Positions 34,796 through 61,566 of a stretch of DNA of 64,000 nucleotides are shown here, piece after piece. The position numbers were made by a program, and so were the translations under genes. Numbering within the stretch: the stretch's first letter is position 1; each line of letters starts with the position of its first letter. Source of the DNA: Candidatus Harrisonbacteria bacterium (GTDB taxonomy: Bacteria; Patescibacteriota; Minisyncoccia; UBA6257; 1-14-0-10-44-23); NCBI GenBank assembly GCA_023255625.1, contig JAHFLF010000001.1, positions 504,074-568,073 on the forward strand, read 5' to 3'. The notes below the pieces were generated by a model. The model had not been told where the DNA came from, made no database searches, and saw only the letters and a list, made by a program, of their open reading frames with translations.

Positions 34796-35566
34796 ATGCG
34801 CGTCGTAGACATGAGCCCCGCAGAACGACTCACGGTGGCGGCTGACTTCAAGCCCGCTGACTGGGGCGGGCGCAGGGGGGTCAGAGACAAGGTGGTAAGT
34901 CTGGCGCAATCGTTGCGAGGAACCGGCGTGACATTCAAGGTCAACACGATCCTGCGCGCGATCGGCTACGGCCTGCTCGAGGAGATCTCCGAGCAGGGGC
35001 TGGTGCCGTGGGCGGATCTCAAACTCTCCGACACCAAGGACACCGACCAGAGCGACATCGATTTCCTGGCGGAGGTCCAGGTGCCGAAGCTGCTGGTCAC
35101 GGTCAAGTGTGACAGCGGAGCAGGCACGCTCAGACACCTGGTGGCGAAGCTTCCGAGGCACATCGAACTCATCGGCATCACCGTCCTCTCGGACATGACG
35201 GAGGACGACTGCCAAGTCGTGTTCGGGCGGGAGATCCACATCGCCATCGACAACTTCTTCGCCATGGCCGGCGAGTGTGGCCTGGGCGGGATCGTCTGCT
35301 CGGGCAAGGACGCAGCCAAGGTCAACGCTGGCAGGACCAGGGTCTCGGACAAGTTCACGATCAACACCCCGAACATCCGGCCCGCCTGGGCCGAGGTCAA
35401 GGGCGACGGCCAGAACGTGAAGCGAGCAGCGACCATCGCGGAGGCACTCGCATACGCCGACCGGGTCGTCATCGGCCGGCCGATCACACAGCAGGAAGAC
35501 GTGCTCGGCGCGACAAGAAGATGTCTGGAAGAAGTCTACACCTGTTGCGGCGGCCTCCCGGACTAG
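34796..35566 (+). CDS. pyrF: Orotidine-5'-phosphate decarboxylase-like protein (high-GC island)
   Basis: FKVN..L....G..LLEEI...G..+.ADLKLSDTKDT (DxKxxD active-site motif) and the C-terminal VIGRPI motif; about 64% GC. Confidence 0.55.
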   Translation: MRVVDMSPAERLTVAADFKPADWGGRRGVRDKVVSLAQSLRGTGVTFKVNTILRAIGYGLLEEISEQGLVPWADLKLSDTKDTDQSDIDFLAEVQVPKLLVTVKCDSGAGTLRHLVAKLPRHIELIGITVLSDMTEDDCQVVFGREIHIAIDNFFAMAGECGLGGIVCSGKDAAKVNAGRTRVSDKFTINTPNIRPAWAEVKGDGQNVKRAATIAEALAYADRVVIGRPITQQEDVLGATRRCLEEVYTCCGGLPD

Positions 35567-35595
35567 GCAACAGAACAAGGAAGGAGAAGGGCAAC

Positions 35596-36393
35596 ATGGA
35601 CATGCGCAAGAGTATCGCCGATCTTCACAGTCTCGGCGATCTGCTCCGGATTCCGCCGGAGCGTTGCTACGACATCGCGTACGACAGCATGGGACTCACA
35701 TCTGAAGAGTTCCGGCACCTCCTCGAGCTGTGCGGGGAATTCTGGCAGCACGACGGCTACATGAACCGGCCGCATGCGAAGCTCACGAGTGGCAAGCACA
35801 GCGACGGATTCGTGAATGTGCTGGGAGGCCTCCGCTTCCCGGTGTTCGCGCAGCTTGTCGCCTGCCATCTGTCGGCCGTGATCGCAAGGTCGTGGAAGCC
35901 ACGGCAGGAGGGCCTTGTGGTCATCGGTTCGAGTTACGCGGCGCTTTGTCTGGCTCACGATGTGGGCCGGCTGCTGCGCGCGGAGTCGACCGGCTTCACG
36001 GAGAAGGGGCCGGAAGTCGAGGAGGGCGGCAAGAAGCGCAAGACCCAGGTGTGGGATCGCTTCGCGATCCGGCCCGGCAAGGTCGTGCTCAATGTGGAAG
36101 ACCTCGTGACGACTTCCAGCACCTGTGTGGAGGTGCGGCGGGGGATTCGCGAGGGCAACGCGAACAAGTTCGGGGTGGCCGAGCCCGTGCAGTTCGCACC
36201 TCTCTTGGCGACGGTGGTGAATCGCTCGCCGGACGAGAAGTTCGAGGGCGCGCCGATCTTCTGCGTGGCGCGTTACAACATGGGCCAGTGGACGCCCGAC
36301 GAGTGTCCGCTCTGTCAGCAGGGTTCGCCGCTCATCGAGCGGCCCAAGAAGCAGTGGAAGGAGCTCACCGGCAGAGACCTTCCGATTCTCTAG
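35596..36393 (+). CDS. pyrE: Type-I phosphoribosyltransferase, orotate-PRTase-like (high-GC island)
   Basis: AAGGAG ribosome-binding site; KLTSGKHSDGFVNV (flexible-loop region) and the PRPP-binding motif VLNVEDLVTTSST; N- and C-terminal extensions including CPLCQ. Confidence 0.5.
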   Translation: MDMRKSIADLHSLGDLLRIPPERCYDIAYDSMGLTSEEFRHLLELCGEFWQHDGYMNRPHAKLTSGKHSDGFVNVLGGLRFPVFAQLVACHLSAVIARSWKPRQEGLVVIGSSYAALCLAHDVGRLLRAESTGFTEKGPEVEEGGKKRKTQVWDRFAIRPGKVVLNVEDLVTTSSTCVEVRRGIREGNANKFGVAEPVQFAPLLATVVNRSPDEKFEGAPIFCVARYNMGQWTPDECPLCQQGSPLIERPKKQWKELTGRDLPIL

Positions 36394-36431
36394 CCCGCGC
36401 CGCCTGACTAGCGACGCGGGTATCAGCAAAT

Positions 36432-36495
36432 CAGGGGTGGTGCGCATGAACCTCGAGTTCAAAAGCACCGCCCCTGACGCATTTTTATTTTTGAG
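36432..36495 (+). terminator. Rho-independent terminator closing the high-GC pyrF/pyrE-like island
   Basis: CAGGGGTGGTGC/GCACCGCCCCTG stem followed by ATTTTTATTTTT. Confidence 0.7.
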
Positions 36496-36688
36496 CTTGA
36501 TACTGCTCGTACTGCTGCTCAATCAAGGTTCTTTTTTTGATCCAAAAATGATAGCCACTCCAGCCGAGTCCAAGAATGATTAAAAATCCAATTAGAACTT
36601 TTAAAAAATGCGGATGTTCAATACTTTTTCTAAATCCATCGCCGATATGAGACATTTCTCTAGTATACTCTAATCTTCCCACAAGCAA
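36485..36688 (-). CDS. Small membrane protein (tentative)
   Basis: 67-aa ORF with one TM. Confidence 0.25.
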   Translation of the reverse strand: MLVGRLEYTREMSHIGDGFRKSIEHPHFLKVLIGFLIILGLGWSGYHFWIKKRTLIEQQYEQYQAQK

Positions 36689-37822: not shown

Positions 37823-38485
37823 ATGAAGAGTGTTCAAATCAAGAATTCAATTAATAAAAGAGTCGGTGTTTCGAGCGATCCTGTTCCCACTTGGCTTGCC
37901 TGTACCTGGCTGCGAACCCCCTGCGGTAAGAAGAGTTGTGCCGTCTGCGGTGTTTTAGCAGACGAGCGGGTGCGGCTTATGACCCAGGGCATGCACGAGG
38001 AGGAAATGCTTGATATTTTAGACGATCTGCGCGAGAGCGTGGCCGATGCTTTTTTGCTGCTGGCTGACAAGATTGATTTGAAAAGGAGCAGTAATCGAAT
38101 TTATTCTACCCGCAGTCCGCACCGTTTTTCAATTTTCCGTTTGCTGGACAGCTGGCACGAGCTTCTGCACGATATTTTTGATGAGGCGGAGATTAATGCC
38201 AGTTGGTGGCTAGAGAGCAGCGACGCTGCAGATGCGGATTGGTATACGCATGTGTTACTAGAATATTTGTATCGCTTGCTTTCATATCGTTGCAGTAGCA
38301 AGTTTTCAGTCAGAAGCAAGCCGACATTCGGAAATATATATGCGCAGTCAGTTGTCATTACTGCGTCAGAAATTGTTGCGAAGTGTTTGCATTCACTGGC
38401 CCTGCTCGATTCGTCAGAAAAAGGATCGCTGCTGCGAATGAGCGGACGGTTCGATGAGTTGCACTCTAAACTTTTACTTTTATGA
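37823..38485 (+). CDS. Hypothetical protein (CxxC pair near N-terminus)
   Basis: ORF; start moved downstream of the terminator hairpin. Confidence 0.4.
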   Translation: MKSVQIKNSINKRVGVSSDPVPTWLACTWLRTPCGKKSCAVCGVLADERVRLMTQGMHEEEMLDILDDLRESVADAFLLLADKIDLKRSSNRIYSTRSPHRFSIFRLLDSWHELLHDIFDEAEINASWWLESSDAADADWYTHVLLEYLYRLLSYRCSSKFSVRSKPTFGNIYAQSVVITASEIVAKCLHSLALLDSSEKGSLLRMSGRFDELHSKLLLL

Positions 38486-39210
38486 CCGCAGCGACTGTTC
38501 AGCGCAAGTTGCGCGAATTTGCTAGCCCGCGGCGAGCTAATATGGCCCGGCGGTATTTCAAGCCCGGTCTCGGAGGATATGGCGAGGGAGATAAATTTAT
38601 TGGTGTATCTCTGCCGAACTTGCGTCGAGTTGCCCATGATTACCTACTGCTTTCCCGAACAGAGCTTCGAGAATTGCTACATTCTAGAATTCACGATGAA
38701 CGGTGTCTGGCGCTGATTATTTTAACCGAGCAGTTTGCCCGCGCCGGTGAGCATGACCGAGAGGCGATTTACAATTTATATCTACTGAATACGAAATATA
38801 TTAATAATTGGGATTTGGTGGATATTTCGGCGACTAAGATTGTCGGCGAGTACCACTATGCCCTTATTCGAACGAATAAGGGCATAGTTTCGGATGTGTT
38901 TTTGCGTTTGGCCAGGTCAAAAAATATTTGGGAACGGCGCATTGCTATGCTCGCAACATTTGCCTTCATAAAGCGCAAAGAGGCAACTCAAGCCCTGGCC
39001 ATTGCCGATATTCTGCGCCACGACACGCACCATCTTATCCACAAAGCAGTTGGTTGGATGCTACGCGAGGTCGGCAAGAACTGTTCTATGGCAACCCTTG
39101 AGCGCTACCTCAAGCCCCGTTACAAGCGCATGCCCCGTACCATGCTCCGCTACGCCATCGAGCGCTTGCCATCTCGCCGCCGTGCGCAGTATTTGGAAGG
39201 TAAAGTATAA
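38482..39210 (+). CDS. DNA alkylation repair protein (AlkD/AlkC-like HEAT-repeat glycosylase family)
   Basis: 242 aa, all-helical, matching the DNA_alkylation family pattern. Confidence 0.65.
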   Translation: MTAATVQRKLREFASPRRANMARRYFKPGLGGYGEGDKFIGVSLPNLRRVAHDYLLLSRTELRELLHSRIHDERCLALIILTEQFARAGEHDREAIYNLYLLNTKYINNWDLVDISATKIVGEYHYALIRTNKGIVSDVFLRLARSKNIWERRIAMLATFAFIKRKEATQALAIADILRHDTHHLIHKAVGWMLREVGKNCSMATLERYLKPRYKRMPRTMLRYAIERLPSRRRAQYLEGKV

Positions 39211-41415: not shown

Positions 41416-43380
41416 ATGTATTCGCATAAAAAATTTGAACTTGTATCAGATTATGTTCCATCGGGTGACCAGCCCGGGGCTATTCAGCAATTAGTAAGCG
41501 GTTTAGAAAAAGGCAAGCGTTATCAAACGCTTCTTGGGGTAACCGGCTCGGGCAAGACCTTTACCATGGCGAATGTCATTGAAAAGATTCAGAAGCCGAC
41601 GCTCGTTATCGCGCCGAACAAAACTTTAGCAGCGCAGCTGTATCAGGAGTATCAGGCATTTTTTCCGCACAACAAAGTTTGCTATTTTGTGAGCTACTAC
41701 GATTACTACCAGCCAGAGGCGTATTTGCCGGTTACTGACACCTACATTGAAAAAGAGGCGATGATCAACGAGGAGATTGACCGCTTCCGCCATGTTGCGA
41801 CCTCTTCGCTTTTAACGCGCAGCGATGTCATCGTTGTTGCCTCGGTCTCCTGTATCTATAACCTCGGCGTGCCGGAAAACTATTTTGATTCCATTATTGG
41901 GCTTGAGGTTGGGCGCGCAATCACGAGGGGAGACTTAATGAAATGGTTAATTAAAATCGGATTTACGCGCAACAACATTGGTGCCAAGCGCGGCACATTT
42001 CGTATCCGCGGGGATGTGTTTGAGGTCTATCCGGCAGCCGAAGCAGTGACTTATAAAATTACGCTTTCGCCGGAACAAGCCGTGACCGAACTCGCCGTCG
42101 TGGATACGCTCACGCGTAAAGTCAAAGAACAATTAAAAGATTTAATCATCTTCCCGCCAAAACATTTTGTTACAACGATGCCAGAGCGGGAGCGTGCCAT
42201 AAAAGATATTAAGGCCGAGTTGAAAGAACGGCTGAAATATTTAGAAAAAAATAAGTTGCTGCTGGAAGCGGAGCGGCTACAGCGGCGCACAAAATATGAT
42301 GTTGAGATGATCGGAACACTTGGCTTTTGCCACGGTATTGAAAATTATTCACGGCACTTGTCTGGCAAGCCGCCTGGATCGCCGCCCGATTCTTTGATGT
42401 CGTACTTTCCGAAAGATAAGAACGGCAAGCCGGATTTTTTGACTATTATTGATGAAAGTCATATCGCCGTGCCGCAGATTGCAGGCATGTACGCCGGCGA
42501 CCAGGCGCGTAAAAAAACGCTGGTTGAATTTGGCTGGCGTCTGCCATCCGCCATGGATAACCGCCCGCTTTCATTTAAGGAAATTTTTGGGCAGGAGTTT
42601 TCCGCCGGAGGCGGATCCGCCTCCGGCGGAGAGGAGCGCATCGGCCAGACGATTTTTACTTCCGCCACGCCGGCGCAGTATGAAAAAGAGCATGCATCAC
42701 AAGTCGTTGAGCAGATCGTCCGCCCGACTGGGCTTGTTGATCCGCCGATTGAGGTGCGCCCGGTTTATTCTCCCTTTCCTAAAGGGAGTACCGCACAAGC
42801 GGGGAGGGATTTAAATCCTCCGTCCGGAGTACCGGCCACCTCCTTTAAGAAAGGAGGAATAAAACAGTGGACCCAGATCGACGATGTCATCGCTGAAACC
42901 ACCGCGAATATTAAAAAAGGCGAGAAGACCTTAATTATCACGCTGACCAAAAAACAGTCCGAGGAGCTAGCGCAGTTTTTAACTGACAAAGGATTCCGTG
43001 CCAAATTTATGCATTCAGATACGCTTACTATGGAACGCACCGAAATTTTGAAAGGCCTACGCAGCAACGAGTTTGATGTATTGATCGGCGTGAACTTATT
43101 GCGTGAAGGGTTAGACTTGCCCGAAGTTTCGCTCGTGGCAATTTTAGACGCCGACCGCGAAGGATTTTTGCGCTCCGAAGTCTCGCTCATCCAAACCATG
43201 GGCCGTGCTGCGCGTAACCTTGGTGGCCGCGTTATTTTGTATGCTGATACCATGACCGGCTCCATGAAACGGGCGATGGACGAGTGCACCCGCCGCCGAG
43301 CAATCCAGCTGGAATACAACCGCAAACATAAGATAACACCTAAGTCTATTAAAAAAGAAATAAGAGAGTTTGGTCAGTAG
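41416..43380 (+). CDS. uvrB: Excinuclease ABC subunit B
   Basis: GVTGSGKTF, beta-hairpin region, DESH, helicase motifs and overall collinearity with UvrB; carries two in-frame palindromic insertions (42601..42630 and about 42762..42860). Confidence 0.9.
   Translation: MYSHKKFELVSDYVPSGDQPGAIQQLVSGLEKGKRYQTLLGVTGSGKTFTMANVIEKIQKPTLVIAPNKTLAAQLYQEYQAFFPHNKVCYFVSYYDYYQPEAYLPVTDTYIEKEAMINEEIDRFRHVATSSLLTRSDVIVVASVSCIYNLGVPENYFDSIIGLEVGRAITRGDLMKWLIKIGFTRNNIGAKRGTFRIRGDVFEVYPAAEAVTYKITLSPEQAVTELAVVDTLTRKVKEQLKDLIIFPPKHFVTTMPERERAIKDIKAELKERLKYLEKNKLLLEAERLQRRTKYDVEMIGTLGFCHGIENYSRHLSGKPPGSPPDSLMSYFPKDKNGKPDFLTIIDESHIAVPQIAGMYAGDQARKKTLVEFGWRLPSAMDNRPLSFKEIFGQEFSAGGGSASGGEERIGQTIFTSATPAQYEKEHASQVVEQIVRPTGLVDPPIEVRPVYSPFPKGSTAQAGRDLNPPSGVPATSFKKGGIKQWTQIDDVIAETTANIKKGEKTLIITLTKKQSEELAQFLTDKGFRAKFMHSDTLTMERTEILKGLRSNEFDVLIGVNLLREGLDLPEVSLVAILDADREGFLRSEVSLIQTMGRAARNLGGRVILYADTMTGSMKRAMDECTRRRAIQLEYNRKHKITPKSIKKEIREFGQ
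42601..42630. repeat. 30-bp perfect palindrome TCCGCCGGAGGCGGATCCGCCTCCGGCGGA, in-frame in uvrB (encodes SAGGGSASGG)
   Basis: Seen directly; identical copy in dus (60020..60049) and a near-identical copy in nfo (56058..56087). Confidence 0.85.
42762..42860. repeat. Roughly 100-nt in-frame insertion in uvrB made of three consecutive small palindromes
   Basis: Hairpins CTCCC..GGGAG, GGAGGGATTTAAATCCTCC, CCTCCTTTAAGAAAGGAGG; insertion of about 33 aa between the conserved IEVRPV and TQIDDV blocks relative to canonical UvrB. Confidence 0.4.
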
Positions 43381-43623
43381 CATAAAACCTGCCCCGTAAT
43401 GAATCAGCAGATTCTACTACCGGGGTTACCCCGCGTGGTATCACAAAGGGGATTCGGGAGTTTGGGGCGTAATTTGTTTGACAAGTTTTAACGAGGGTGT
43501 ATTATATTCTCTACATGTTTAGATCAATAATCACTACTAAGTGTACGACTACCAAGACTCTCTCCTGCGAGTGGGTGGTTATTTCTATGGTTTAACATTT
43601 TTAGAACCAACGAAATTTTTTAA

Positions 43624-43656
43624 AACCGCTCTATCGCCGAGAGCGGTTTTTGTTTG
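43624..43656 (+). terminator. Rho-independent terminator
   Basis: AAACCGCTCT/AGAGCGGTTT stem followed by a T-run. Confidence 0.6.
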
Positions 43657-43733
43657 CGTGCTGGATTCTGTCTCTCGCTGGAGCGAGAGACAAGGCGGGA
43701 GACAGAATCAGTTCGTGAAATAGGAGGTTCAGC

Positions 43734-44543
43734 ATGTCTGGTGAACGGTTTTATGTCGATCAAGATGCCGCAGCAGAGATGCTGCGCACCCGCACCCCAC
43801 TCCGGGATCGGGTGGAGTGCTGGTGGGCACAGCAGGGGTTCGCCTTCCCCGATGTCTTCGCTCGTCATCATCAGATCGGCTTCGTTTCGCGACACCTGGC
43901 CACGGCGCGGTTTGAGGACGCGGCCTTCGTCGTGATGGCGGAGCTGATGGGGCTGCGGCCCGTCTGGTCCACCTACATCGGTGATGAGTTCGTCACCTTC
44001 TCGCCGGTCAAGTGCTCGTATGTGCAGCCCCTCGTGTTCGATCGGTTCGCCGGCAAGCCCGATAAGCCAGAACCGGTTCTTCGCAAGGTTCGTCTTGCGA
44101 ATCCAGAGTGCTGTCAGGGCGAGCGACTCAACAGGATCATGGTGCAGGGCGGCAGTTCGCTCGTCGCGTGGCACCAGAACCGGCTTCTCACGATGTACCC
44201 AGGTGCGCTCGTCACGGATCCGACCGAGATCTATCGGCGTCTCGGTGGTGCGCGCAACTACTATGTCTTCCTCCTGTCGCTCGCGGCGGCGCATGGCGTC
44301 CTCTTCGAGGATTTCCATGGAGGCGAGACGGGGGAGCCACTGATGAAGTTCACGCGGGAGATCTTTGAACCCGCGTTCGACAAGGTCGCCGAGCTGTTTG
44401 GCGCACCACCGGTGGTGGTCCGGCTCCCGTGGTGGCGCGAACTCGGTTACTATGTGTCTGAAGCAGATCTCGTGAACGGATGGAGAGACAGCCCGGCGCT
44501 CAAGCATCTCGCCAGGGCGCACAGCCCTTGCGCTCGGATGTAG
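43734..44543 (+). CDS. GC-rich hypothetical protein (269 aa), unknown function
   Basis: AGGAGG ribosome-binding site; nested inverted repeats in the 5' leader; about 62% GC. Confidence 0.5.
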   Translation: MSGERFYVDQDAAAEMLRTRTPLRDRVECWWAQQGFAFPDVFARHHQIGFVSRHLATARFEDAAFVVMAELMGLRPVWSTYIGDEFVTFSPVKCSYVQPLVFDRFAGKPDKPEPVLRKVRLANPECCQGERLNRIMVQGGSSLVAWHQNRLLTMYPGALVTDPTEIYRRLGGARNYYVFLLSLAAAHGVLFEDFHGGETGEPLMKFTREIFEPAFDKVAELFGAPPVVVRLPWWRELGYYVSEADLVNGWRDSPALKHLARAHSPCARM

Positions 44544-44595
44544 CGGACTCGCACGAGGGGCGGTTACGGCCGCCCCTCAAAAAATAATTCATATT

Positions 44596-45558
44596 ATGCG
44601 GTATTATACATCTATGGCTTACACCATGATTGAATTCATAAAAAAGTTGTATGCGCTTGGGGAGCGGCAGTTTGAGAAAGAGCAACAGGCAGCTGTTTTA
44701 ATTCGAAAAGAGCTTGAGGCGTATCATGTACCATATCGGACTGAACATTTTACGATGAATCTGCCCCGTTTCAAGAAGGCAGAGTTGTCTGTTGATGGAC
44801 ATACTATTCCGTGTGTAGCCACCTCACTCGTATCTGGCAAGATCACATCGCCTAATCCGTTGATTAGTTCGCTCACCAGTTCTCAGAATTTTCTACATAA
44901 CTCAAATATTAATTTTAATCAGCTTTGCAGGTCTATATCGCGCAGCAATCATTATTTTGCGCCTTCAGTGGCCGTACATGCGCATGATGTAAAACATTTT
45001 TTGGGAGCAGAGTCTGTTCAGGGAACAGTTATAGTTCATAAAGTCAGACATACGGCTACCAACATACTGGTGGGTAATAGTAAAAATCCTCGCTATGTTG
45101 TTTTTTCGCATTTTGACTCTCTGTATGGGGGTGCGGTTGATAATGCGAGCGGTACAGCGCTGTCTTTGTATCTTGCTACGCAGCACAAAGAGCTTTTGGC
45201 GCATACACTTTTTGTTTTCAGCGGTAACGAAGAACTTTCATATGACGAACCCATTTACTGGGGGCATGGCTATCGGGTTTTTGAAGCTAAACACGGGAGC
45301 GCTCTCAAGCGGGCAAAACATATATTTGTTATCGATTGCATTGGCTTTTCCAAAACAAATTTTGTTAGAGATCAGAAGGTCGTTATATTGGGTTTCCCGG
45401 TCAAATCACTTAGCACTATTATCAATAAAACTACATTAGTGATAGGTGATTACCAAAAGATGATGACTTTTTATCACAGCGATTTAGATACGCCCGAACT
45501 GATTACGGAAGCAGAGATGCGGCGAGCGGCGCAGGCAATGATTAAAAAATTATCATAA
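44596..45558 (+). CDS. M28-like zinc peptidase family protein
   Basis: HFDS...GAVDNASGTA metal-binding block. Confidence 0.5.
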   Translation: MRYYTSMAYTMIEFIKKLYALGERQFEKEQQAAVLIRKELEAYHVPYRTEHFTMNLPRFKKAELSVDGHTIPCVATSLVSGKITSPNPLISSLTSSQNFLHNSNINFNQLCRSISRSNHYFAPSVAVHAHDVKHFLGAESVQGTVIVHKVRHTATNILVGNSKNPRYVVFSHFDSLYGGAVDNASGTALSLYLATQHKELLAHTLFVFSGNEELSYDEPIYWGHGYRVFEAKHGSALKRAKHIFVIDCIGFSKTNFVRDQKVVILGFPVKSLSTIINKTTLVIGDYQKMMTFYHSDLDTPELITEAEMRRAAQAMIKKLS

Positions 45559-45561
45559 TAT

Positions 45562-45984
45562 ATGGCACAAGATTTTTCACGGCGGTTGGCGATCGTAGTC
45601 CGCAGGGATATTGAGAGCTGGCAGACGACTAATACCATCGCGCACATTGCGGGGCGGCTAGGGCATGACATTAAAGAGTATTTGACCGGCAAAATCTTTA
45701 CCACAAAGGACGGCATGAGTGTGCCGCGCAATTCGCAGTATCCGATTATTGTGTTCCAGACAGAGGGGATTGAGAAATTACGAGTTTTCCTCGGCGAAGT
45801 GCGGGTCGCTCAACTGCCGCATCTTGCGTATATTCGAGAGATGATTGATTTTGAAGACGATGACCAGCTCCAGGCCGCGCTCGGACAAAAGAATGACGCA
45901 GAGGTTGAGTATCTTGGCGTTGGCGTATTTGGCGACAACGACACTCTCAAAAAGCTGACCAAGAAGTTTAGTTTGTGGAAATAA
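45562..45984 (+). CDS. DUF2000-like small protein (tentative)
   Basis: 140-aa ORF; weak family resemblance only. Confidence 0.35.
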   Translation: MAQDFSRRLAIVVRRDIESWQTTNTIAHIAGRLGHDIKEYLTGKIFTTKDGMSVPRNSQYPIIVFQTEGIEKLRVFLGEVRVAQLPHLAYIREMIDFEDDDQLQAALGQKNDAEVEYLGVGVFGDNDTLKKLTKKFSLWK

Positions 45985-46062
45985 ACTTTTTGTAGTAAAG
46001 TCCTATTTGTATCGTATACCCCCTTATATTCAAAAAGGCGGGCGTTCTGCATTATGAACTCT

Positions 46063-46134
46063 TTGTCATTCTGACGTACGCGGAAGAATCTCGCCGAAAG
46101 ACGGGTCGAGATCCCTCGGCTTCGGGATGACAAC
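46063..46134. repeat. MITE-like palindromic element, intergenic copy upstream of uvrA
   Basis: TGTCATTCTGACGTACGCGGAAGAATCTCGCC-GAAAGAC-GGGTCGAGATCCCTCGGCTTCGGGATGACAA; imperfect inverted repeat about 72 nt. Confidence 0.7.
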
Positions 46135-46139
46135 TAGAT

Positions 46140-48833
46140 ATGAAAAAACCAAACGAATTCATTAACAAAATTGTTATCAAGGGCGCGCGGGTTCACAACT
46201 TGAAGGATGTGAATTTGGAGTTGCCCAAAAATGAGCTGATTGTTTTTTCGGGGTTGTCGGGGAGTGGAAAAAGTTCGCTTGCATTTGATACGATTTTTGC
46301 GGAGGGGCAGCGCCGGTATGTTGAGTCTCTTTCGCCATATGCGCGGCAATTTTTGGGCCAGATGGAGAAGCCGGATGTGGACGAGATTACCGGGCTCTCA
46401 CCGGCCATTGCCATTGATCAAAAGGCGCACTCGCATAATCCGCGCTCAACCGTGGCAACGCTTACCGAAATTTATGATTACATGCGCGTATTGTTTGCCC
46501 GTGCTGGCGTGGCGTACTGCCCAACCTGTGGTCGCGCTATTCGTAAAATGGCGCCAGAAGAAATTGTAGACACTATTCGCGACGAGGCGGCGAAGCGTAA
46601 GGTGCAGCATGTCACGATCATGGCCTCAATGGTGCGTGGACGAAAAGGCGAGTACTTTCAACTGCTTCAGGATTTGTTTCGCGATGGATTTAACGAGGCG
46701 CGGATTGATGGCAAGACGGTTTCGCTGCACGAAAAAGTTGAGCTGAAGCGATATGGTGCGCACACGATTGATCTGGTTGTAGACAAGGTCATGCCCTCGG
46801 ACAAGTCTCGATTATTTGAGGCGGTGGAGACGGCGCTGACCAAAGGCAAGGGGTTAATTTCAGTTGCGTTTGGGGATCCGGCAACCGTTCGTCATTCTGA
46901 GCGCAGCGAAGAATCTCGCCGGAAAAAGGGGCGAGATCCTTCGGGCATACCTCAGGATGACAAAGGGGAGGATGTGCCGCAGTGGGAGCATGACCTTGAG
47001 GCGTCAAAAAAATTAGACAGCGAGATCCTTCGGCTTCAGGATGACAAGCAGGGAAACGAACAAATGTTTTCGGCGCACTGGAGCTGCCCGCACGACGGAT
47101 TTTCGTTTCCGGAGATTGAGCCGCGCCTGTTTTCATTCAACAGTCCATTTGGCGCGTGTGAGGAGTGCCATGGCATTGGGCATGATTTTTTTGACTCGGC
47201 AAAGGTCTGTGCAAGGTGTAATGGCGCGCGGCTGCGCCCCGAGGTACTATGCATCCGGCTCGGCGGTAAAAATATTGACGAGATTGTGTCGCTGACAATT
47301 GACGAGGCCTATGAATTTTTTGCGGACATTGAGCAACACTTGTCTACGAGCCAAAAAGTAATTGCCAAAAATGCTCTGAAAGAGATTACTGACCGTTTGG
47401 AATTTTTGCTGGAGGTTGGGCTGGATTATATAACGCTCAAGCGCGAGAGCGGCACCCTCTCTGGCGGCGAGGCGCAGCGTATTCGGCTGGCATCGCAGAT
47501 CGGCAGCAAACTTTCCGGCACGCTGTATGTTCTGGACGAACCAACGATTGGTTTGCACGAGCGCGACAATGAGCGGCTCATTAAGATTATGAAGGAGCTG
47601 CGCGACCTGGGCAATACGCTGATTGTGGTTGAGCATGACGAGCGAGTCATTCGCGAAAGCGATTATTTTGTGGATATTGGCCCGGGGCCGGGAGTGCACG
47701 GCGGGCAGATTGTGGCGGCCGGAGAGATGCCAGGAATTTTAAAAACTGCAGGCAAGGAATCTTTGACAGCGCGGTATTTGAGAGGTGAGGAGGAGATTGT
47801 AATTCCAAAAACACGGCGCGAGAAAGATAAGGGCTGGCTCAAGATTATTGGCGCAACTGCCAACAATATTCAAAATTTAAATGTAGAAATTCCGCTGGGA
47901 CGGCTGGTCTGCGTGACGGGTGTATCAGGTAGTGGGAAATCAACGCTGCTAGAGGAAGTTTTGTATCGCAACACGCAGAAGATGCTTGGCGGGTTTCAAA
48001 ATCTTGTAGGAGTGTCAAAAATACTCGGCGTTGAGTTTATCCGCCACATTATTGAGATTGACCAGTCGCCGATTGGCAAGACGCCGCGGAGCAACCCGGC
48101 AACTTACACCGGCGTGTTTGGCCCGATTCGTGATTTGTTTTCAATGCTTCCTGAAGCCCAGGAGCGGGCCTACGGCGCCGGCCGGTTTAGTTTTAATGTG
48201 CCTTCGGCGCGTGGCGGTGGGCGGTGTGAGGCCTGTGAAGGTGCTGGAGCCAAGATTATTGAGATGCACTTTTTGCCGGATGTTTTAGTAACCTGCGATG
48301 TCTGCCGCGGTAAGCGGTTTAATGCCGAGACACTGGAGGTGAAATATAAAAATAAAAGCATTTCACAGGTTTTAGACATGACGGTTGAGGAGGCGCTTAC
48401 GCACTTTGACGGCGTGTACCGCATTACCGATCACTTGCGGGTCATGAACGAAGTGGGACTTGGGTACATTAAGCTCGGCCAATCAGCGACAACGCTCTCG
48501 GGCGGTGAGGCCCAGCGCATTAAGCTGGCAAAAGAGCTCGCTCGGCCCATGGCACGCCATGATTTGTTTATTTTAGACGAGCCGACGACCGGACTGCATT
48601 TTGAAGATGTTAAGATGCTGCTGGAAGTTTTACAAAAGTTAGTTGAAAAGGGGAACACCGTGATTTTAATTGAGCACAATATGCATGTGATTAAAGTGGC
48701 GGATTATTTGATTGACATGGGGCCGGAGGCGGGCGTGCGTGGCGGCAAGGTGATTGCGGAGGGGACGCCGGAAGAAGTGGCGAGAAGTGCAAAATCAATC
48801 ACGGGGAAATATTTGAAAGAGTATTTGAGGTAG
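46140..48833 (+). CDS. uvrA: Excinuclease ABC subunit A
   Basis: Two ABC ATPase modules (GLSGSGKSSL; GVSGSGKSTL), zinc-finger Cys clusters, LSGGE signatures; contains a full and a half MITE-like element in-frame (46891..46973; 47020..47048). Confidence 0.9.
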   Translation: MKKPNEFINKIVIKGARVHNLKDVNLELPKNELIVFSGLSGSGKSSLAFDTIFAEGQRRYVESLSPYARQFLGQMEKPDVDEITGLSPAIAIDQKAHSHNPRSTVATLTEIYDYMRVLFARAGVAYCPTCGRAIRKMAPEEIVDTIRDEAAKRKVQHVTIMASMVRGRKGEYFQLLQDLFRDGFNEARIDGKTVSLHEKVELKRYGAHTIDLVVDKVMPSDKSRLFEAVETALTKGKGLISVAFGDPATVRHSERSEESRRKKGRDPSGIPQDDKGEDVPQWEHDLEASKKLDSEILRLQDDKQGNEQMFSAHWSCPHDGFSFPEIEPRLFSFNSPFGACEECHGIGHDFFDSAKVCARCNGARLRPEVLCIRLGGKNIDEIVSLTIDEAYEFFADIEQHLSTSQKVIAKNALKEITDRLEFLLEVGLDYITLKRESGTLSGGEAQRIRLASQIGSKLSGTLYVLDEPTIGLHERDNERLIKIMKELRDLGNTLIVVEHDERVIRESDYFVDIGPGPGVHGGQIVAAGEMPGILKTAGKESLTARYLRGEEEIVIPKTRREKDKGWLKIIGATANNIQNLNVEIPLGRLVCVTGVSGSGKSTLLEEVLYRNTQKMLGGFQNLVGVSKILGVEFIRHIIEIDQSPIGKTPRSNPATYTGVFGPIRDLFSMLPEAQERAYGAGRFSFNVPSARGGGRCEACEGAGAKIIEMHFLPDVLVTCDVCRGKRFNAETLEVKYKNKSISQVLDMTVEEALTHFDGVYRITDHLRVMNEVGLGYIKLGQSATTLSGGEAQRIKLAKELARPMARHDLFILDEPTTGLHFEDVKMLLEVLQKLVEKGNTVILIEHNMHVIKVADYLIDMGPEAGVRGGKVIAEGTPEEVARSAKSITGKYLKEYLR
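46891..46973. repeat. MITE-like palindromic element, full copy in-frame within uvrA (encodes ..RHSERSEESRRKKGRDPSGIPQDDK..)
   Basis: Near-identical to the uvrC copy at 51058..51130. Confidence 0.7.
47020..47048. repeat. Half-copy (right arm) of the MITE-like element in uvrA (encodes SEILRLQDDKQ)
   Basis: GCGAGATCCTTCGGCTTCAGGATGACAAG. Confidence 0.5.
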
Positions 48834-48843
48834 CGGCGGTATC

Positions 48844-48968
48844 GGTTCCTGGTTTTTGGTTTGCCCCAGACCGGCCCCGTCTATCTGCGCGCGGCTCGCG
48901 CAGCGACTCCTCTCGGCCTCCTCGGCCTGCGAGAGGGCCGCCTTGCGTCAAACCAAAAACCAGGAACC
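48844..48968. repeat. Perfect 20-bp inverted repeats (GGTTCCTGGTTTTTGGTTTG / CAAACCAAAAACCAGGAACC) flanking an 85-nt GC-rich spacer, between the uvrA stop and the GC-rich Cys-repeat gene
   Basis: Seen directly. Confidence 0.5.
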
Positions 48969-49082
48969 TCAATATTTAGTTTGATAATTTTATATAGGTG
49001 GAGTAGGGTAGAAAAATGACTGTGTGCAGAGTCCCTGCGCAGGTCAAGCCGGCTACGAGCTGGCGGAAGGAGAGAGGAAATC

Positions 49083-50210
49083 ATGGCGAGGACATTGTCT
49101 CGGTCGCACCTATCGCGATCGTCGCTCGGATCAAGGTGTTTCGGCGGGGGCGTCAGCATGCGTTTCTGCTGTACATCGGGTCGGCCCGGAGTGGTCAAGA
49201 AGGCGAAGCCGCCTGTGGAGGCCGCCCCTCCGAAGCCCACAATGACTTTCAGCCCGGAGCCTTCTGGCATTCTGTGCGGTGAGTGCGGCAAGCTGAAGGC
49301 GACTCGCCGAGTGGCGTGGGACGGCAAGTTCGTGGGTCGTATCTGCGAGCAGGTCGCCTGCGAATGGAAGGCCATCGAGGACGGCAGTTCCTGGAGGCCG
49401 CGGGTTCCGGCCCCGGCCAGGAAGCCGCAGCCGGCGGTATCCGCCCCGACGGCCAGCCGTGAAGACACGGAGCGGGCCGCTGCTGGGAGGTTCGTTCGTG
49501 AGGGCAGGAGACCCATGCGGCCGGGCAGCGTCGTTCAGCCGAGTTCCCGGGCGACGACGCCCGCACCAGCGGCTGGCATCGATTCCAGTCGGATCAAGGC
49601 GGGTGTGAGGGGATACATGGATGCGTCCAAGAGATGCGTCTGCGGAGGGCATGCGTTCTACGACATCTCTCTCGACGGCGTCCTCATCGGGCAGGCGTGC
49701 TGGGATTCCGCATGCCACAGGAAGTTGGCCACGCAGCATGAGGCAGGGAGCAGCGTGCCGACCGCTGCTGCGACGCCTGCTGTCGCTGACCGGTGGTTCA
49801 CGAAGCCGTTGTCGGCCCGCTCGAGTGGTCTCAAGTGTGCAGTCTGCGGAGCACTCGCGCACTACGAGCTTCTACGCAATGATCGGCCAGTCGGTCTTCT
49901 GTGCTGGCTGGACATCTGCGAGACGACGCTCAAGGAGAGCATCGCCTCCAACAAGCCGCAGGCGGTATCCACCGCGAGCGTCCAGCCCGCGCCCGTGGAC
50001 ATGCGGCATTCGGTGGGGACAGCCGGTTTGTGCAACTTCTGTGGCCGTAGGCACTGGCTGGATATGTCGTTCTACGCGCCTAACGGCGAACTGCTCGGTA
50101 CTAGCTGCATCGAACCTGCCTGCGTCGCCAATGCGAAGGCGAGGGCCCGTCTGGGCGAGAGCTGGACCCAGAAGCAGCCGGCGGCTTCTGGAGGAGGCGG
50201 GCCCCACTAG
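49083..50210 (+). CDS. High-GC protein with four tandem Cys-ribbon-like repeats (CxxCG-x15-19-C-x4-6-C) separated by Pro/Ala-rich linkers
   Basis: Repeats CGECGK..GRICEQVAC / CVCGGH..GQACWDSAC / CAVCGA..GLLCWLDIC / CNFCGR..GTSCIEPAC; GGAGAGAGG ribosome-binding site; about 65% GC; the exact start is uncertain. Confidence 0.5.
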   Translation: MARTLSRSHLSRSSLGSRCFGGGVSMRFCCTSGRPGVVKKAKPPVEAAPPKPTMTFSPEPSGILCGECGKLKATRRVAWDGKFVGRICEQVACEWKAIEDGSSWRPRVPAPARKPQPAVSAPTASREDTERAAAGRFVREGRRPMRPGSVVQPSSRATTPAPAAGIDSSRIKAGVRGYMDASKRCVCGGHAFYDISLDGVLIGQACWDSACHRKLATQHEAGSSVPTAAATPAVADRWFTKPLSARSSGLKCAVCGALAHYELLRNDRPVGLLCWLDICETTLKESIASNKPQAVSTASVQPAPVDMRHSVGTAGLCNFCGRRHWLDMSFYAPNGELLGTSCIEPACVANAKARARLGESWTQKQPAASGGGGPH

Positions 50211-50266
50211 GGGCTCACACTCGCTGGAGTTCCGTGGGATTCCAGCTACAACTACGGGGCGCGCTC

Positions 50267-50309
50267 GGACACCATGCCGAGCGCGCCCGCAATTTTTTTG
50301 GATTTTTTA
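50267..50309 (+). terminator. Rho-independent terminator of the Cys-repeat gene
   Basis: GGGCGCGCTCGG/CCGAGCGCGCCC stem followed by GCAATTTTTTT. Confidence 0.7.
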
Positions 50310-50327
50310 CATATTATCTATAACTGT

Positions 50328-50361
50328 ACTAGTCGCTTATTCGCGCGAATTAGAGACTAGT
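50328..50361. promoter_or_regulatory. ACTAGT-flanked palindromic motif with ATTCGCGCGAAT core in the uvrC upstream region; an inverted 24-nt copy lies inside uvrC (51265..51288)
   Basis: TCGCTTATTCGCGCGAATTAGAGA is the exact reverse complement of 51265..51288. Confidence 0.45.
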
Positions 50362-50639
50362 TGTTTTTGGGTCGGAGTATCAGCTATACTAACCGCTCAC
50401 GGGTTCTTCTGCTTTTGAAAAATTAAAGTTGTTCGGGTATGGTATAAGCGGCTCCGCAGTGCTTTGAGGGAGCACCGAAGTACAAAGATGCCAGGGTGTT
50501 GTTGATAGGATTCTGAGCCAGCGAACTCGCCGTTTTTATCTTTTCCGGCGACGGAGGCGAAAGAATTATTCAATGACCAGTTCCCTCGTTGCAGTCGTGT
50601 CCGGGCGCGGCGCACTCGTCGCGCCCGGAATATACTTGT

Positions 50640-52118
50640 ATGAACTTGGCGATTTATGAAAAATTAAAGAAAATTAGTAAAAAATTTCCGAACAAGCCAG
50701 GGGTTTATTTCTGGCGAAATAAAAAAGGTGCGCCGCTGTACATTGGCCGGGCGGGGAGTTTAAAAAAGCGGATTGCGAATTACTTCGTCACGCCGAAGCT
50801 CGGCGAAGGCGGATCTAGATTAGACCCGCGGATTCGCGAGATGACGCAGGTGGCGCATTCGCTGGATTTTGAAGAGACGGATTCTTTGCTTGAGGCGATT
50901 GTGCTTGAAGCGAATTTAATCAAGCAATACTGGCCCAAATACAATATCTTGGAAAAGGACGGCAAGTCGTTCATTTATCTAGTTATCACCGACGAAGAAT
51001 TTCCAAGACTGCTTCTTGTCCGCGGCCGTGAGTTGGATAAATATTCCGTTAGCTTACGTCATTCTGAGCGCAGCGAAGAATCTCGCCTCAAAACGGAGCG
51101 AGATCCTTCGGGCGTACCTCAGGATGACAAACAAAAAAAGAAAAGGAAGCAGTACGGTACTTTGGGCGTATTTGGACCGTACCAAAGTTATTATCTATTG
51201 CGCAAAGCTTTAGAGATTGTCCGCAAAATTTTCCCGTATTCAAATTGTCGTCCCCCTGACTATTCTCTAATTCGCGCGAATAAGCGAATAGTCAGTAAGC
51301 CCTGCTTTCACTATCAGATCGGCTTATGCCCGGGCGTGTGCGTTGGCGCGATTGATGCAAAGACATACCGTAATAATATCCGTAATTTAATATTGTTTTT
51401 CCGCGGTGAGAAAAAGCAACTGCTCAAAAAATTGCAGAAAGAAGAAGCTTTACCCTCCAAAACTTTTGGGAAAAGTTTGGGAGGGCGAGACGCTATCTTG
51501 GCGCTTAAGCAGGTTCGGGACACGGCGCTTTTGGCTGATTCTGATGTTTTGCTGCGTGGTAATCAGCTCACTGACCGACGGATTGAGGGGTATGACATCA
51601 GCCACTCCGGTGGCAAACAGCCGGTGGGGGCAATGGTGGTGTTTGAGAATGGCGAGCCGGCGCGCGATCAGTATAGGTTGTTTAATATCCGTGGCCCTGC
51701 ATCCTCTTCCGCTATCAACTATAAACTATCAACTATAAACTCCTCCGATGATTTGGCCATGTTGCAGGAAGTTTTGGGGCGGCGGCTCAAACATTCCGAG
51801 TGGCCGTTGCCGCAGATTGTGTTTGTTGACGGTGGCGTAAATCAGGTACGGCGGGTGAATGCCGTGCTTAAGCGGCATAATTTGACATTGCCGGTCGTTG
51901 GATTAGGAAAAGCTGGCCAGCATGCCGCATCGTCGGCCGGGCAGGACAAGTTGGTCGTAGCAAATGCAAAAAAAACCGGTAAAGAATTAATAATTGCGTC
52001 ACGGAATCTATTTCAGCAAGTGCGTAACGAAGCGCACCGGTTTGCAATCAGTGCGCAGCGCCGGCGCGGCAAAAATACTTTCTTGCCGCGCCGACTGCCA
52101 CCTATCTATCCGTCTTAA
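50640..52118 (+). CDS. uvrC: Excinuclease ABC subunit C (short form; ends after the RNase-H-like endonuclease domain, with no C-terminal helix-hairpin-helix (HhH) tail)
   Basis: GIY-YIG N-domain (PGVYFW...PLYIGRAG.LKKR...YF), the UvrBC-interaction region, the C-terminal endonuclease motif EAHRFAI; contains an in-frame MITE-like element (51058..51130) and a palindrome (51257..51298). Confidence 0.85.
   Translation: MNLAIYEKLKKISKKFPNKPGVYFWRNKKGAPLYIGRAGSLKKRIANYFVTPKLGEGGSRLDPRIREMTQVAHSLDFEETDSLLEAIVLEANLIKQYWPKYNILEKDGKSFIYLVITDEEFPRLLLVRGRELDKYSVSLRHSERSEESRLKTERDPSGVPQDDKQKKKRKQYGTLGVFGPYQSYYLLRKALEIVRKIFPYSNCRPPDYSLIRANKRIVSKPCFHYQIGLCPGVCVGAIDAKTYRNNIRNLILFFRGEKKQLLKKLQKEEALPSKTFGKSLGGRDAILALKQVRDTALLADSDVLLRGNQLTDRRIEGYDISHSGGKQPVGAMVVFENGEPARDQYRLFNIRGPASSSAINYKLSTINSSDDLAMLQEVLGRRLKHSEWPLPQIVFVDGGVNQVRRVNAVLKRHNLTLPVVGLGKAGQHAASSAGQDKLVVANAKKTGKELIIASRNLFQQVRNEAHRFAISAQRRRGKNTFLPRRLPPIYPS
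51058..51130. repeat. MITE-like palindromic element, full copy in-frame within uvrC (encodes ..RHSERSEESRLKTERDPSGVPQDDK..)
   Basis: GTCATTCTGAGCGCAGCGAAGAATCTCGCC-TCAAAACGGA-GCGAGATCCTTCGGGCGTACCTCAGGATGACAA. Confidence 0.7.
51257..51298. repeat. 42-bp imperfect palindrome inside uvrC (CTGACTATTC...ATTCGCGCGAAT...GAATAGTCAG)
   Basis: Seen directly; its core is shared with the promoter-region copy. Confidence 0.45.
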
Positions 52119-60166: not shown

Positions 60167-60637
60167 CTAGCAGATGGGCTCAACGATTTCGTAGATCGCC
60201 CAGACGATCCAGAAAATGATTCCGAACAAGACGACCGCAGACCAGAACAGCGTGTAGCCGTTCAGATGATCGGACCAGGTCACCTTTTCGGGAGACTGCG
60301 CGTCCTCGTCCCCAGGGTCTTCCTCCTCTGATTCGTCGGGATCAGAGGCGAAGTCGTCCTCGCCATCGTCCTCGCAGTCCTGCGGATCACAGAACGATGC
60401 GTGCCTCATGTGCTCTATGAAGAGGTCTAGTTGGCTGGACGAGAGGGGAAGGTTCTCGCCAGGTTTTAGTCTCGCGGCATGCATCCAGAGGAATTCTATC
60501 CTCAGCTCGGCGGTACTTCTTGAGTCTCCGTTGCTCGTGAAGTAGCCGAGGACCAGATTGTAAGTCTCCTCGGCAGCGTCTCTGCCAAGGCCGCAATCCG
60601 GACACGCGTCCGGATCATCGTCCACATCATGCGACAT
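60167..60637 (-). CDS. High-GC acidic protein (CPDC pair near N-terminus, poly-acidic stretch, C-terminal TM)
   Basis: 156-aa ORF; about 60% GC. Confidence 0.45.
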   Translation of the reverse strand: MSHDVDDDPDACPDCGLGRDAAEETYNLVLGYFTSNGDSRSTAELRIEFLWMHAARLKPGENLPLSSSQLDLFIEHMRHASFCDPQDCEDDGEDDFASDPDESEEEDPGDEDAQSPEKVTWSDHLNGYTLFWSAVVLFGIIFWIVWAIYEIVEPIC

Positions 60638-60771
60638 GGGATTCTCCTTCTGCGTGAGGGGTTTAGGGTCAATAAGACAATATCAAAATTGCATTTTCCC
60701 GTCCGTTCGTCAAATGTGACTCGGGCCGCCGACAGGGTGTGTCGGCGGCCCGAAGCGGGTGCGCGATGGCT

Positions 60772-60915
60772 TCATCGCGCGTCCGAATCATCTTCCACTC
60801 GTTGCGGAAATTGATCCGGTTGATCGCTGTCGCGTCCGTAGGAACGCGTTGGCGGTGGATATTGCGGTTCCCGGTCTTCGTCGCGCCAGACCGGCAGCTC
60901 GAACGGTTCGGCCAT
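60772..60915 (-). CDS. 47-aa acidic, proline-rich small protein (tentative)
   Basis: GGAGGG ribosome-binding site 5 nt upstream; 1 nt after the stop of the upstream small ORF (translational coupling). Confidence 0.3.
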   Translation of the reverse strand: MAEPFELPVWRDEDREPQYPPPTRSYGRDSDQPDQFPQRVEDDSDAR

Positions 60916-60916
60916 C

Positions 60917-61015
60917 TCACCCTCCGTTCATGTGGACGCCTTCGCATCCGGTGAAGCATGCGACGATGATCAGGGCGATGGTCCAGATGATCGCGAAAAT
61001 GTCTCGTTTGCTCAT
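60917..61015 (-). CDS. 32-aa membrane peptide MSKRDIFAIIWTIALIIVACFTGCEGVHMNGG (tentative)
   Basis: AGGAG ribosome-binding site; single TM helix. Confidence 0.3.
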   Translation of the reverse strand: MSKRDIFAIIWTIALIIVACFTGCEGVHMNGG

Positions 61016-61025
61016 TCTGAAACTC

Positions 61026-61415
61026 CTACCTGGTCTGACTTCCGATTCGTTGCGCCCGCAGCTCCATGCGGATTGCGTAGACCCGTTCGAGCAGAGCGAG
61101 GCGTGAGAGGGGGCGACCCTTCTCGTCGCAGAGAAGCAGGCGTCGCGCCGACATCTCTTGCTGATAGAAGCGCTTGAATGAACTATTCCGGGCTTGGTGT
61201 TGCAGCATCTCCTTGATGCCGATCCACGCCCAGAATGCATTCAGGCCGACGAATACCCATGTTCTGCTAAGCGTAGCGCTGATGGATAGGAGGAGTGCCC
61301 CCATTCCGTTCATGCTCGCGAGCAGGAGTTGTCGCTTGTCGCCCCGACTTGCCAGCCAGTAGGCGACCAAGAGCATGGTTGCGCCGCAAATGCCGGCAAG
61401 ATCTCCTATCCCCAT
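61026..61415 (-). CDS. High-GC membrane protein (3-4 TM), unknown function
   Basis: AAGGAGG ribosome-binding site 8 nt upstream. Confidence 0.45.
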   Translation of the reverse strand: MGIGDLAGICGATMLLVAYWLASRGDKRQLLLASMNGMGALLLSISATLSRTWVFVGLNAFWAWIGIKEMLQHQARNSSFKRFYQQEMSARRLLLCDEKGRPLSRLALLERVYAIRMELRAQRIGSQTR

Positions 61416-61566
61416 GTGTGCCGCCTCCTTGTTGCGGTACTTTCTTTATATTCTCTTGTTATGATTTGGTCAAATGTCTTAGCTTGGTCTATTCTGTAAG
61501 CATGAACCGGGCAGTGAAAATGCGAGTAGTGCCCGGAAATATTAACACTCGCATTTCTACTGCCCG

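Follow-up and report, generated by a model that had tools for sequence, protein, structure and literature searches.

The 64-kb stretch of DNA analysed here (contig JAHFLF010000001.1; hereafter the window, meaning the whole stretch) belongs to a genome that its UvrC relatives place among the Parcubacteria, related to Candidatus Harrisonbacteria. Between uvrA and uvrC it carries an open reading frame (ORF), ORF375, at 49083-50210 on the plus strand, which appears from its sequence to be a genuine protein-coding gene with a transcription unit of its own. Its product is a basic protein of 375 amino acids (isoelectric point, pI, 9.6) with four modules of four cysteines each (Cys4) and low-complexity linkers. 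The present study suggests that ORF375 is the fused, four-module member of an undescribed, clade-restricted family of small Cys4 proteins. By sequence searches alone ORF375 is a singleton orphan; synteny reveals a family that sits in one slot of an excision-repair operon. Current libraries do not describe this family, and the clade that carries it is uncultivated.

Results

The relatives of ORF375 were located by synteny at the uvr locus and not by protein search, following the search for homologues and their context proposed in the original prediction, an earlier reading of the bare sequence of the window. In the clade, uvrB-uvrA-uvrC is usually contiguous, and uvrA and uvrC abut in the genomes referred to as L004, L005, L007, L085 and L178. 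In L003, L006, L083, L086, L087 and L177, a GC-rich (guanine plus cytosine) insert lies exactly in the uvrA|uvrC gap, and the contig of L084 ends in the gap, carrying there at least one related small ORF and a terminator. The cassette comparison rests on seven known cassettes. UvrC of the nearest sampled genomes is only 66-71% identical to that of the window.

The cassette proteins mostly have 65-147 residues and are mostly very basic, and several bear a single Cys4 module. L083 has two such small genes, of 94 residues (CPFC-X19-C-X4-C ... ARKRATW) and 85 residues (CELC-X22-C-X5-C ... AKERARAGETW). L087 encodes a 113-residue protein with CRYC-X18-C-X4-C and a 147-residue protein with CICGG ... 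C-X4-CWERARAR, whose C-terminus recurs in L084; the 83-residue protein of L086 has CLGCGK-X18-C-X4-C. The relatives therefore retain the Cys pattern, whose absence from homologues had been named beforehand as a reason to give up the repeat reading. Applied to six-frame translations of the window and 85 loci (1.08 million residues in all), the regular expression C..C.{17,23}C.{4,5}C found seven matches, every one of them inside the uvrA|uvrC gap (three in the window, two in L083, one each in L086 and L087). This confinement, together with the shared cassette, points to ORF375 as a fused, four-module member of the family. A hidden Markov model (HMM) of the four ORF375 modules retrieved the 85-residue ORF of L083 at E 5.6e-5 among 15,651 six-frame segments, the next match being at E 0.6 or above; once that ORF was added, the 94-residue ORF of L083 was the best of the remainder (E 0.08). 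Across eight aligned modules the four Cys columns are invariant, provided that module 2 of ORF375 is given a gap.

Within ORF375, four 4-Cys groups account for part of a total of 19 cysteines. On the plus strand, module 1 (49275-49358) reads C65-X2-C68-X18-C87-X4-C92, module 2 (49635-49715) C185-X-C187-X18-C206-X4-C211, module 3 (49836-49919) C252-X2-C255-X18-C274-X4-C279 and module 4 (50031-50123) C317-X2-C320-X21-C342-X4-C347, followed by AKARARLGESW. The original prediction of four Cys4 modules holds, but its CxxCG opening applies to three of them only, as the degenerate first knuckle of module 2 is CxC (R-C185-V-C187-G-G). Likewise, it had put the spacings at x15-19 and x4-6, where the actual values are X18 or X21 between the pairs and always X4, never X5 or X6, within the second pair. 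It was right about linkers rich in Pro, Ala and Ser: Pro/Ala/Ser/Gly-rich stretches part the modules, with 47-59% Pro/Ala/Ser/Gly/Thr, and bear most of the positive charge. The tail of module 4 resembles the C-terminus of the 85-residue L083 protein. Module 4 is thus similar, in place as well as in tail, to the final gene of the L083 cassette, so that ORF375 appears to have arisen by fusion and internal expansion of single-module genes.

The coding character of ORF375 was assessed from composition, length and Cys pattern. As predicted, the ORF at 49083-50210 is GC-rich (65.6%, against about 48-51% in the flanks), and a ribosome-binding site, GGAAGGAGAGAGG, stands 5 nt before its ATG. GC content is 46-50% on average over the window and 64-72% at 49.0-50.3 kb. 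ORF375 is the longest of several overlapping ORFs, other GC-rich frames giving 243, 265 and 211 residues. Third-position GC is 0.71-0.81 in the ORF375 frame in every 300-nt window of 49150-50200 and 0.57-0.68 in the other two plus-strand frames. No frame is better by this measure, so the possibility raised earlier of a true gene on another frame or strand finds no support. The stop-free stretch of the ORF375 frame, 396 codons, was equalled in 3 of 2000 dinucleotide shuffles (p about 0.0015). Among 200,000 residue shuffles of ORF375, three strict Cys patterns occurred in 4 and four relaxed patterns in 1 (p about 1e-5).

The sequence of the region is the same in independent assemblies. Contig L001 from ENA (21 kb compared) is identical to the window across the junctions, as is the Logan contig L002 (run SRR14366769, window 48914-51086), and the ORF375 protein is identical in NCBI, ENA and two Logan assemblies. 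Therefore, the ORF375 region is no assembly chimera. The protein cluster of ORF375 has a single member, found on NCBI, ENA and Logan contigs. Only ORF375 itself came back from a full phmmer search of 1.84 billion cluster representatives and from a word-indexed search that covered 5.8 billion proteins; in the latter, a profile of its four modules had no match. Pfam, NCBIfam, PHROGs and PADLOC gave no match for ORF375, its modules or its relatives, and a sequence search of the PDB gave only generic CxxCG knuckle noise; the earlier remark that the repeat family could not be recognised is thereby upheld. Two further kinships were considered and rejected. The modules differ by eye in spacing from the motifs of UvrA (CxxCxGxG) and UvrC (C-Xn-C-X7-C-X3-C), and there is no direct homology between ORF375 and the 81-residue ORF of L003.

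An AlphaFold2 model of module 1 (residues 58-107; mean predicted local distance difference test, pLDDT, 73) has strands at 74-79 and 82-88 and a helix at 90-100. The predicted fold is thus a zinc knuckle and a beta-hairpin, followed by a helix with the CX4C pair at its N-terminus.

The cassette also has an expression framework, which the sister genomes share. A sigma-70-like promoter is inferred at 48981-49009 on the plus strand (TTGATA-17-TAGGGT); the consensus promoter scan missed it and its -10 hexamer fits at 3 of 6 positions only, and it aligns column by column with TTGACA-17-TATTTT of L003. Downstream on the same strand, leader hairpin 1 (49024-49040) has the core GUGCAG/CUGCGC, its stem stretching to 49018-49045 in the minimum free energy (MFE) fold. 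Leader hairpin 2 (49048-49064; GCCGGCU ACG AGCUGGC) stands directly 5' of the Shine-Dalgarno region (49065-49077), which is unpaired in the predicted fold. The unit ends in an intrinsic terminator on the plus strand (50257-50298; a 12-bp GC stem, an 8-nt loop and a T-run) that resembles the cassette terminators of L003 and L087 in sequence. The Shine-Dalgarno sequence and ATG of ORF375 align with those of its relatives.

The 25-nt leader core, GCCGGCT-N4-GCTGGCGGAAGGAG, is the same in the window, L003 and L083 save for the 4 free positions, and is near-identical in L087. The sequence of hairpin 2 is kept in these four; L177 and L006 have other hairpins instead. As a MAFFT alignment of the six leaders misplaced hairpin 1, the leaders were folded one by one. 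All six (window, L003, L083, L087, L177 and L006) gave the same two-hairpin shape with different stem sequences: a hairpin 1 of 6-11 bp that differs in sequence in each genome, a spacer of 1-2 nt in five leaders and longer in L006, and, after hairpin 2, a Shine-Dalgarno sequence and start codon unpaired in the predicted folds. In a five-sequence alignment, five pairs of hairpin 1 are altered on both sides. The two-hairpin leader (49018-49082 in the window) is a candidate new cis-regulatory or mRNA-stabilising motif. When metagenome contigs were scanned with the leader pattern, 88 exact matches were obtained, 78 of them in contigs of at least 58% GC; none of the 88 contigs had a close uvrA or uvrC relative (two had weak UvrA-like ABC proteins, at about 30% identity) or a downstream Cys4 ORF, and the matches were judged to be chance. 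Viral contigs had no match for the leader pattern, the arm of the upstream hairpin described below or ORF375.

Besides the Cys4 proteins, the gap holds Cys-less, Arg-rich cassette proteins of 81 (L003, 5653-5898), 65 (L177, 3658-3855) and about 36 residues (L006, about 1944-2054), and a further one in L086 (2653-2940), all of them extremely basic. Judged by their sequences, they appear to form a second family of undescribed small proteins at the uvrA|uvrC gap. Three of them that were measured have pI 11.8-12.0, and L003 and L086 share an NPNSTR...AAQ motif. The first genes of L003 and L083 both start with MRGGRKERRAR, and that of L177 opens with a similar Arg-rich run. Overall, 5 of 8 small cassette proteins measured have pI 10.9-12.0, the 113-residue Cys4 protein of L087 being an exception at 6.8; the single-module relatives range from 6.8 to 11.3, with four of five at 8.4-11.3. 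Third-position GC is 0.76 in ORF375, 0.67-0.91 in most relatives and 0.41-0.52 in the 83-residue protein of L086 and the 147-residue protein of L087. Other cargo of the gap comprises the gene of one AAA_28 plus CYTH-like protein in L087 (2644-3768), a 305-residue orphan in L176 (1584-2501) and a 149-residue orphan in L086 (3308-3757). The uvrA|uvrC gap behaves as an insertion hot spot. A rough neighbour-joining tree of UvrC does not part the genomes with a cassette from those without one; the two kinds are interleaved.

Upstream of the cassette promoter, and 10 nt past the uvrA stop codon, lies a palindromic element of 125 nt (48844-48968, no strand), a 20-bp perfect terminal stem around a GC-rich three-way junction. 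The perfect inverted repeats of 20 bp with an 85-nt GC-rich spacer were correctly described earlier (arms 48844-48863 and 48949-48968), and they extend to 34 nt at 85% complementarity. The 20-mer of the arm occurs twice in the window, against 0.02 expected. The MFE of the hairpin RNA is -72.5 kcal/mol on the plus strand and -80.2 on the minus strand (z about -6.3 and -6.6), and 0 of 200 shuffles fold as stably. One Logan contig ends within the hairpin, at 48914. The 64-kb window, 1.47 Mb of related and other loci and the viral contigs yielded no second copy. Rfam had no family at or above its gathering threshold in the whole window, and what scored below the threshold in 48700-50700 was noise. 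The terminator scan did not call the hairpin, and the downstream CTCAATATTTAG is A/U-rich and lacks a U-run.

The original prediction saw in these repeats the possible boundary of an inserted module, which our comparison contradicts: the cassette promoter lies downstream of the hairpin, and L003 has the cassette without the hairpin, its uvrA stop and homologous promoter being 40-50 nt apart. L083 and L176 have different, unrelated palindromic elements in the same spacer. Since it is outside the conserved promoter, missing in L003 and replaced by other palindromes in L083 and L176, the hairpin reads not as a cassette boundary but as a palindromic insertion of its own, placed after the uvrA stop and before the promoter of the cassette. 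The structured RNA that the original prediction gave as its alternative may or may not exist, neither an Rfam family nor a second copy having been found. The probable role of the hairpin is that of a 3' stem-loop or insulator for uvrA, which an independent transcription unit now splits from uvrC. An integron attC reading was rejected, as the element is single, forms no array and has arms without the R'/R'' core (GTTRRRY) by inspection.

The flanking genes are uvrA (46140-48833, with Pfam UvrA_inter and ABC domains) and uvrC (about 50589/50640-52118, with UvrC_RNaseH and GIY-YIG). The other neighbours are uvrB (41416-43380), farther upstream of uvrA, and housekeeping genes. The uvrB/uvrA gap (43381-46139) measures 2.7 kb here, holding a GC-rich orphan, an M28-like peptidase and a DUF2000 gene, whereas uvrB and uvrA are adjacent or about 600 bp apart in the relatives. 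With inserts at both uvrB/uvrA and uvrA/uvrC, the uvr operon of this genome is split at both junctions.

Three further GC-rich islands of the window (34600-36520, 43620-44590 and 60170-61420) have 57-63% GC and third-position GC of 0.71-0.80. The first contains an orotidine monophosphate (OMP)-decarboxylase-like ORF. The second contains a 269-residue orphan without a Pfam match, with a nested inverted repeat (about 43665-43711) and AGGAGG before it and a terminator (about 44558-44590) after it, a layout like that of the ORF375 unit. The recorded gene of this island (43620-44543) is a minus-strand ORF (L001 4538-5425, window 43620-44507). By third-position GC, the plus-strand ORF 43734-44543 is the better candidate (0.74 versus 0.65 for the minus strand), and the minus-strand call at 43620-44507 is likely a strand error in the public annotation.

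Several other palindromes were observed in the window. A 71-nt palindromic element occurs in frame twice, in uvrA (46891-46961) and in uvrC (51058-51128). It reads GTCATTCTGAGCGCAGCGAAGAATCTCGC ... GCGAGATCCTTCGGGC.TACCTCAGGATGAC and is translated as HSERSEESR...RDPSG.PQDDK, with identical 29-mers. UvrC of L086 is without the insertion, and L083 bears a different element of the same style; these elements resemble the Rickettsia palindromic elements, here in Parcubacteria. Palindromes with the core CTTATTCG(CG)CGAATAAG stand at 50328-50361, between the ORF375 terminator and a promoter-like site of uvrC; at 51256-51295 in uvrC, where the window is longer than L083 and L086 by about 14 residues (PDYSLIRANKRIVS); at 4321-4356; and at 38855-38888, overlapping ORF 38482-39210. 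Either a site bound by a protein or a further palindromic insertion in frame could account for them. Long inverted repeats at 15800-15962 and 18206-18329, with arms of 20-25 bp placed 84-113 nt apart, have a geometry like that of the hairpin after uvrA and an unrelated sequence. Like that hairpin, the second of them follows a stop codon closely, at a distance of 15 nt from the end of the minus-strand ORF 18344-19141.

Discussion

Our reading is that the cassette is a GC-rich unit wedged into the uvrB-uvrA-uvrC operon, made of a promoter, a two-hairpin leader, a Shine-Dalgarno sequence with start codon and a terminator. This framework is common to the clade while its coding content turns over fast, such that sister genomes hold one or two single-module genes, Arg-rich Cys-less genes or nothing. 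In the present genome, module-plus-linker units would have been joined into one protein of 375 residues. If each module held one structural zinc ion, and if the basic linkers and modules bound nucleic acid or a partner protein, the four modules would make ORF375 a multivalent, non-enzymatic binder, that is, a regulator or an adaptor. That ORF375 is a real gene, belongs to a new family and sits in a conserved cassette framework is, in our judgement, highly probable, while its function as a binder or regulator is a tentative proposal. For the whole reading, combining gene, family, framework and multivalent-binder function, we estimate a probability of roughly 0.6.

Several points weigh against this reading. 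The 85-residue ORF of L083 is the sole relative that is significant by profile, and the membership of the L086 and L087 proteins rests on pattern and position. Single-module phmmer searches barely link the modules of ORF375 to one another (best i-E about 0.6), and their mutual identity is 27-34% only. These two values indicate that the modules are old, and with such divergence the repeat amounts to a common Cys/Gly skeleton and not to a recent duplication. The AlphaFold2 model was built from a 4-sequence alignment and without metal, and a single-sequence model of full-length ORF375 has a pLDDT of 37. Zinc binding, and the binding of nucleic acid or protein, are what we infer for these modules. 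The location in the uvr operon may, or may not, reflect a role in excision repair. Given the common site and framework, the interleaving of cassette-bearing and cassette-free genomes is what an ancestral cassette would give if it was lost repeatedly and turned over fast; repeated gains would suit the patchy distribution just as well. Finally, the high third-position GC persists in genomes of about 48-55% GC, which an old, vertically inherited cassette does not explain.

A recent horizontal acquisition is the first alternative to be considered. Here, the 1.4 kb of GC-rich DNA would be foreign, from a high-GC donor or a mobile element, and the hairpin would be its left end. The contrast of 65% GC with the flanks agrees with this, as do the further GC-rich islands (at 34.6-36.5, 43.6-44.55 and 60.2-61.4 kb), the other insertions in the uvr operon of this genome, the patchy cassette distribution and the lack of homologues beyond the clade. 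However, the promoter, leader and terminator are homologous across genomes in which UvrC is 66-71% identical, and a framework shared by genomes about 30% diverged in UvrC argues for a cassette of long standing in the clade. The conserved promoter does not include the hairpin, which L003 lacks. Furthermore, neither an integrase or transposase nor a target-site duplication or right-hand hairpin partner is present, nothing was found in viral contigs, and 15 billion proteins revealed no donor lineage. We therefore regard a recent acquisition as unlikely.

Beyond our reading of a fused family member in an old cassette, a more far-reaching one can be drawn. The locus would be a fast-evolving, clade-specific one, in which a conserved expression framework with a covarying leader drives a changing set of small, GC-rich and mostly very basic proteins; the Cys4 module would be a new zinc-binding domain that works with or regulates nucleotide excision repair in Parcubacteria, and the leader would be a new cis-regulatory RNA. 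If so, the proteins could be, for example, adaptors of damaged DNA or of a Uvr protein, with ORF375 as the multivalent version. This extension is speculative, and we would not bet on it. Should the proteins bind zinc and nucleic acid, they would add a new mini-domain to the zinc-ribbon/treble-clef repertoire. The fusion of single-module genes into a multi-module protein, if it took place, would be a clear example of its kind, and a conserved structured leader over hypervariable coding sequence bears on the origin and turnover of new small genes where genomes are reduced. The novelty is modest and well delimited, and would be no major surprise to a specialist.

In general type, the modules combine a zinc knuckle with a helix (treble-clef/zinc-ribbon), and within that type they constitute a new sequence family, for which membership in the Ogr/Delta or eL24 groups is not established. 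Ogr, Delta and B are zinc-finger activators of late genes in P2-, P4- and 186-like phages, and the Delta protein of phage P4 is a fused double Ogr. ORF375 could be an Ogr/Delta-type zinc-finger transcription activator, remnant of or domesticated from a P2/P4-like element, its four modules paralleling P4 Delta. Both groups consist of small single-domain proteins with fused multi-module forms, and the single-module relatives, at 83-147 residues, are about the size of Ogr (72 residues) or a little larger. The Cys spacing is of one class without being identical: CX2C-X18-22-CX4C in the family (module 2 being CXC and some relatives X5) and CX2CX22CX4C in Ogr (PMC3931495). An hhalign comparison of the family with seven Ogr/Delta sequences put the four Cys in register, at a low, Cys-driven probability of 32% (P 4.7e-4). 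In contrast, PF04606, the Ogr/Delta family, was unmatched at E up to 1-10 by ORF375, its four modules and five relatives. ORF375 stands in a chromosomal uvr operon without nearby phage genes, not in a phage late region, and there is no PHROG match and no relative in viral contigs. The N-termini of the family are mostly Arg-rich and basic, and the hosts are Patescibacteria as opposed to Proteobacteria. A descent from Ogr/Delta thus has a low probability.

The second comparison is with the TRASH/eL24-type fold, of which the TRASH signature is CX2C-X19-22-CX3C; zf-FCS, YHS and YacG are TRASH-clan kin of eL24. The cassette proteins might be small, ribosomal-protein-like, RNA-binding zinc proteins, autoregulated via the leader, with Cys-bearing and Cys-less forms paralleling the C+/C- pairs of ribosomal proteins. 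The motif likeness, CxxCG...DG...hC...C...(R/K)...W-T as read from the sequences, includes a CxxC(G) knuckle, a beta-hairpin with a D/N-G turn, a second Cys pair at the helix start and, 10-14 residues past that pair, the W(T) that closes a basic stretch. Most of the small proteins of the cassettes are very basic, some relatives have Cys and others do not, and the two-hairpin leader directly precedes the Shine-Dalgarno sequence. About 20 of the top 50 Foldseek matches in the PDB are eL24/RLP24 chains, though non-significant, with a TM score of about 0.3. Against eL24, hhalign gave a probability of 7%, with an alignment that starts at the first knuckle and goes no further than the DG turn. All four modules have CX4C as their second pair (X4-5 in relatives), as opposed to CX3C in eL24. 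We consider this explanation, too, distinctly improbable.

A non-functional origin, whether as a spurious long ORF in GC-rich DNA that is non-coding (and might specify, for example, a structured RNA) or as a pseudogene in decay, would agree with the long ORFs that such DNA yields in several frames, the missing whole-protein homologues, the extensive low-complexity linker and the degenerate knuckle of module 2, but it is very improbable given the frame-specific third-position GC, the ORF length, the Cys pattern, modules kept in relatives only at the uvrA|uvrC site, the conserved Shine-Dalgarno sequence and start and the lack of an Rfam match.

The upstream hairpin can be compared with miniature inverted-repeat transposable elements (MITEs), repetitive extragenic palindromic (REP) sequences and Rickettsia palindromic elements. 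It differs from them in being single-copy in the sequence examined and having no recognisable target-site duplication, and the window's other palindromic elements do not resemble it in sequence. Like them, it is short and non-coding, with perfect terminal inverted repeats. It occupies an intergenic spacer that holds other palindromic elements in sister genomes, and its presence varies at an otherwise conserved site. Palindromic elements are also inserted in frame in uvrA and uvrC of the same genome.

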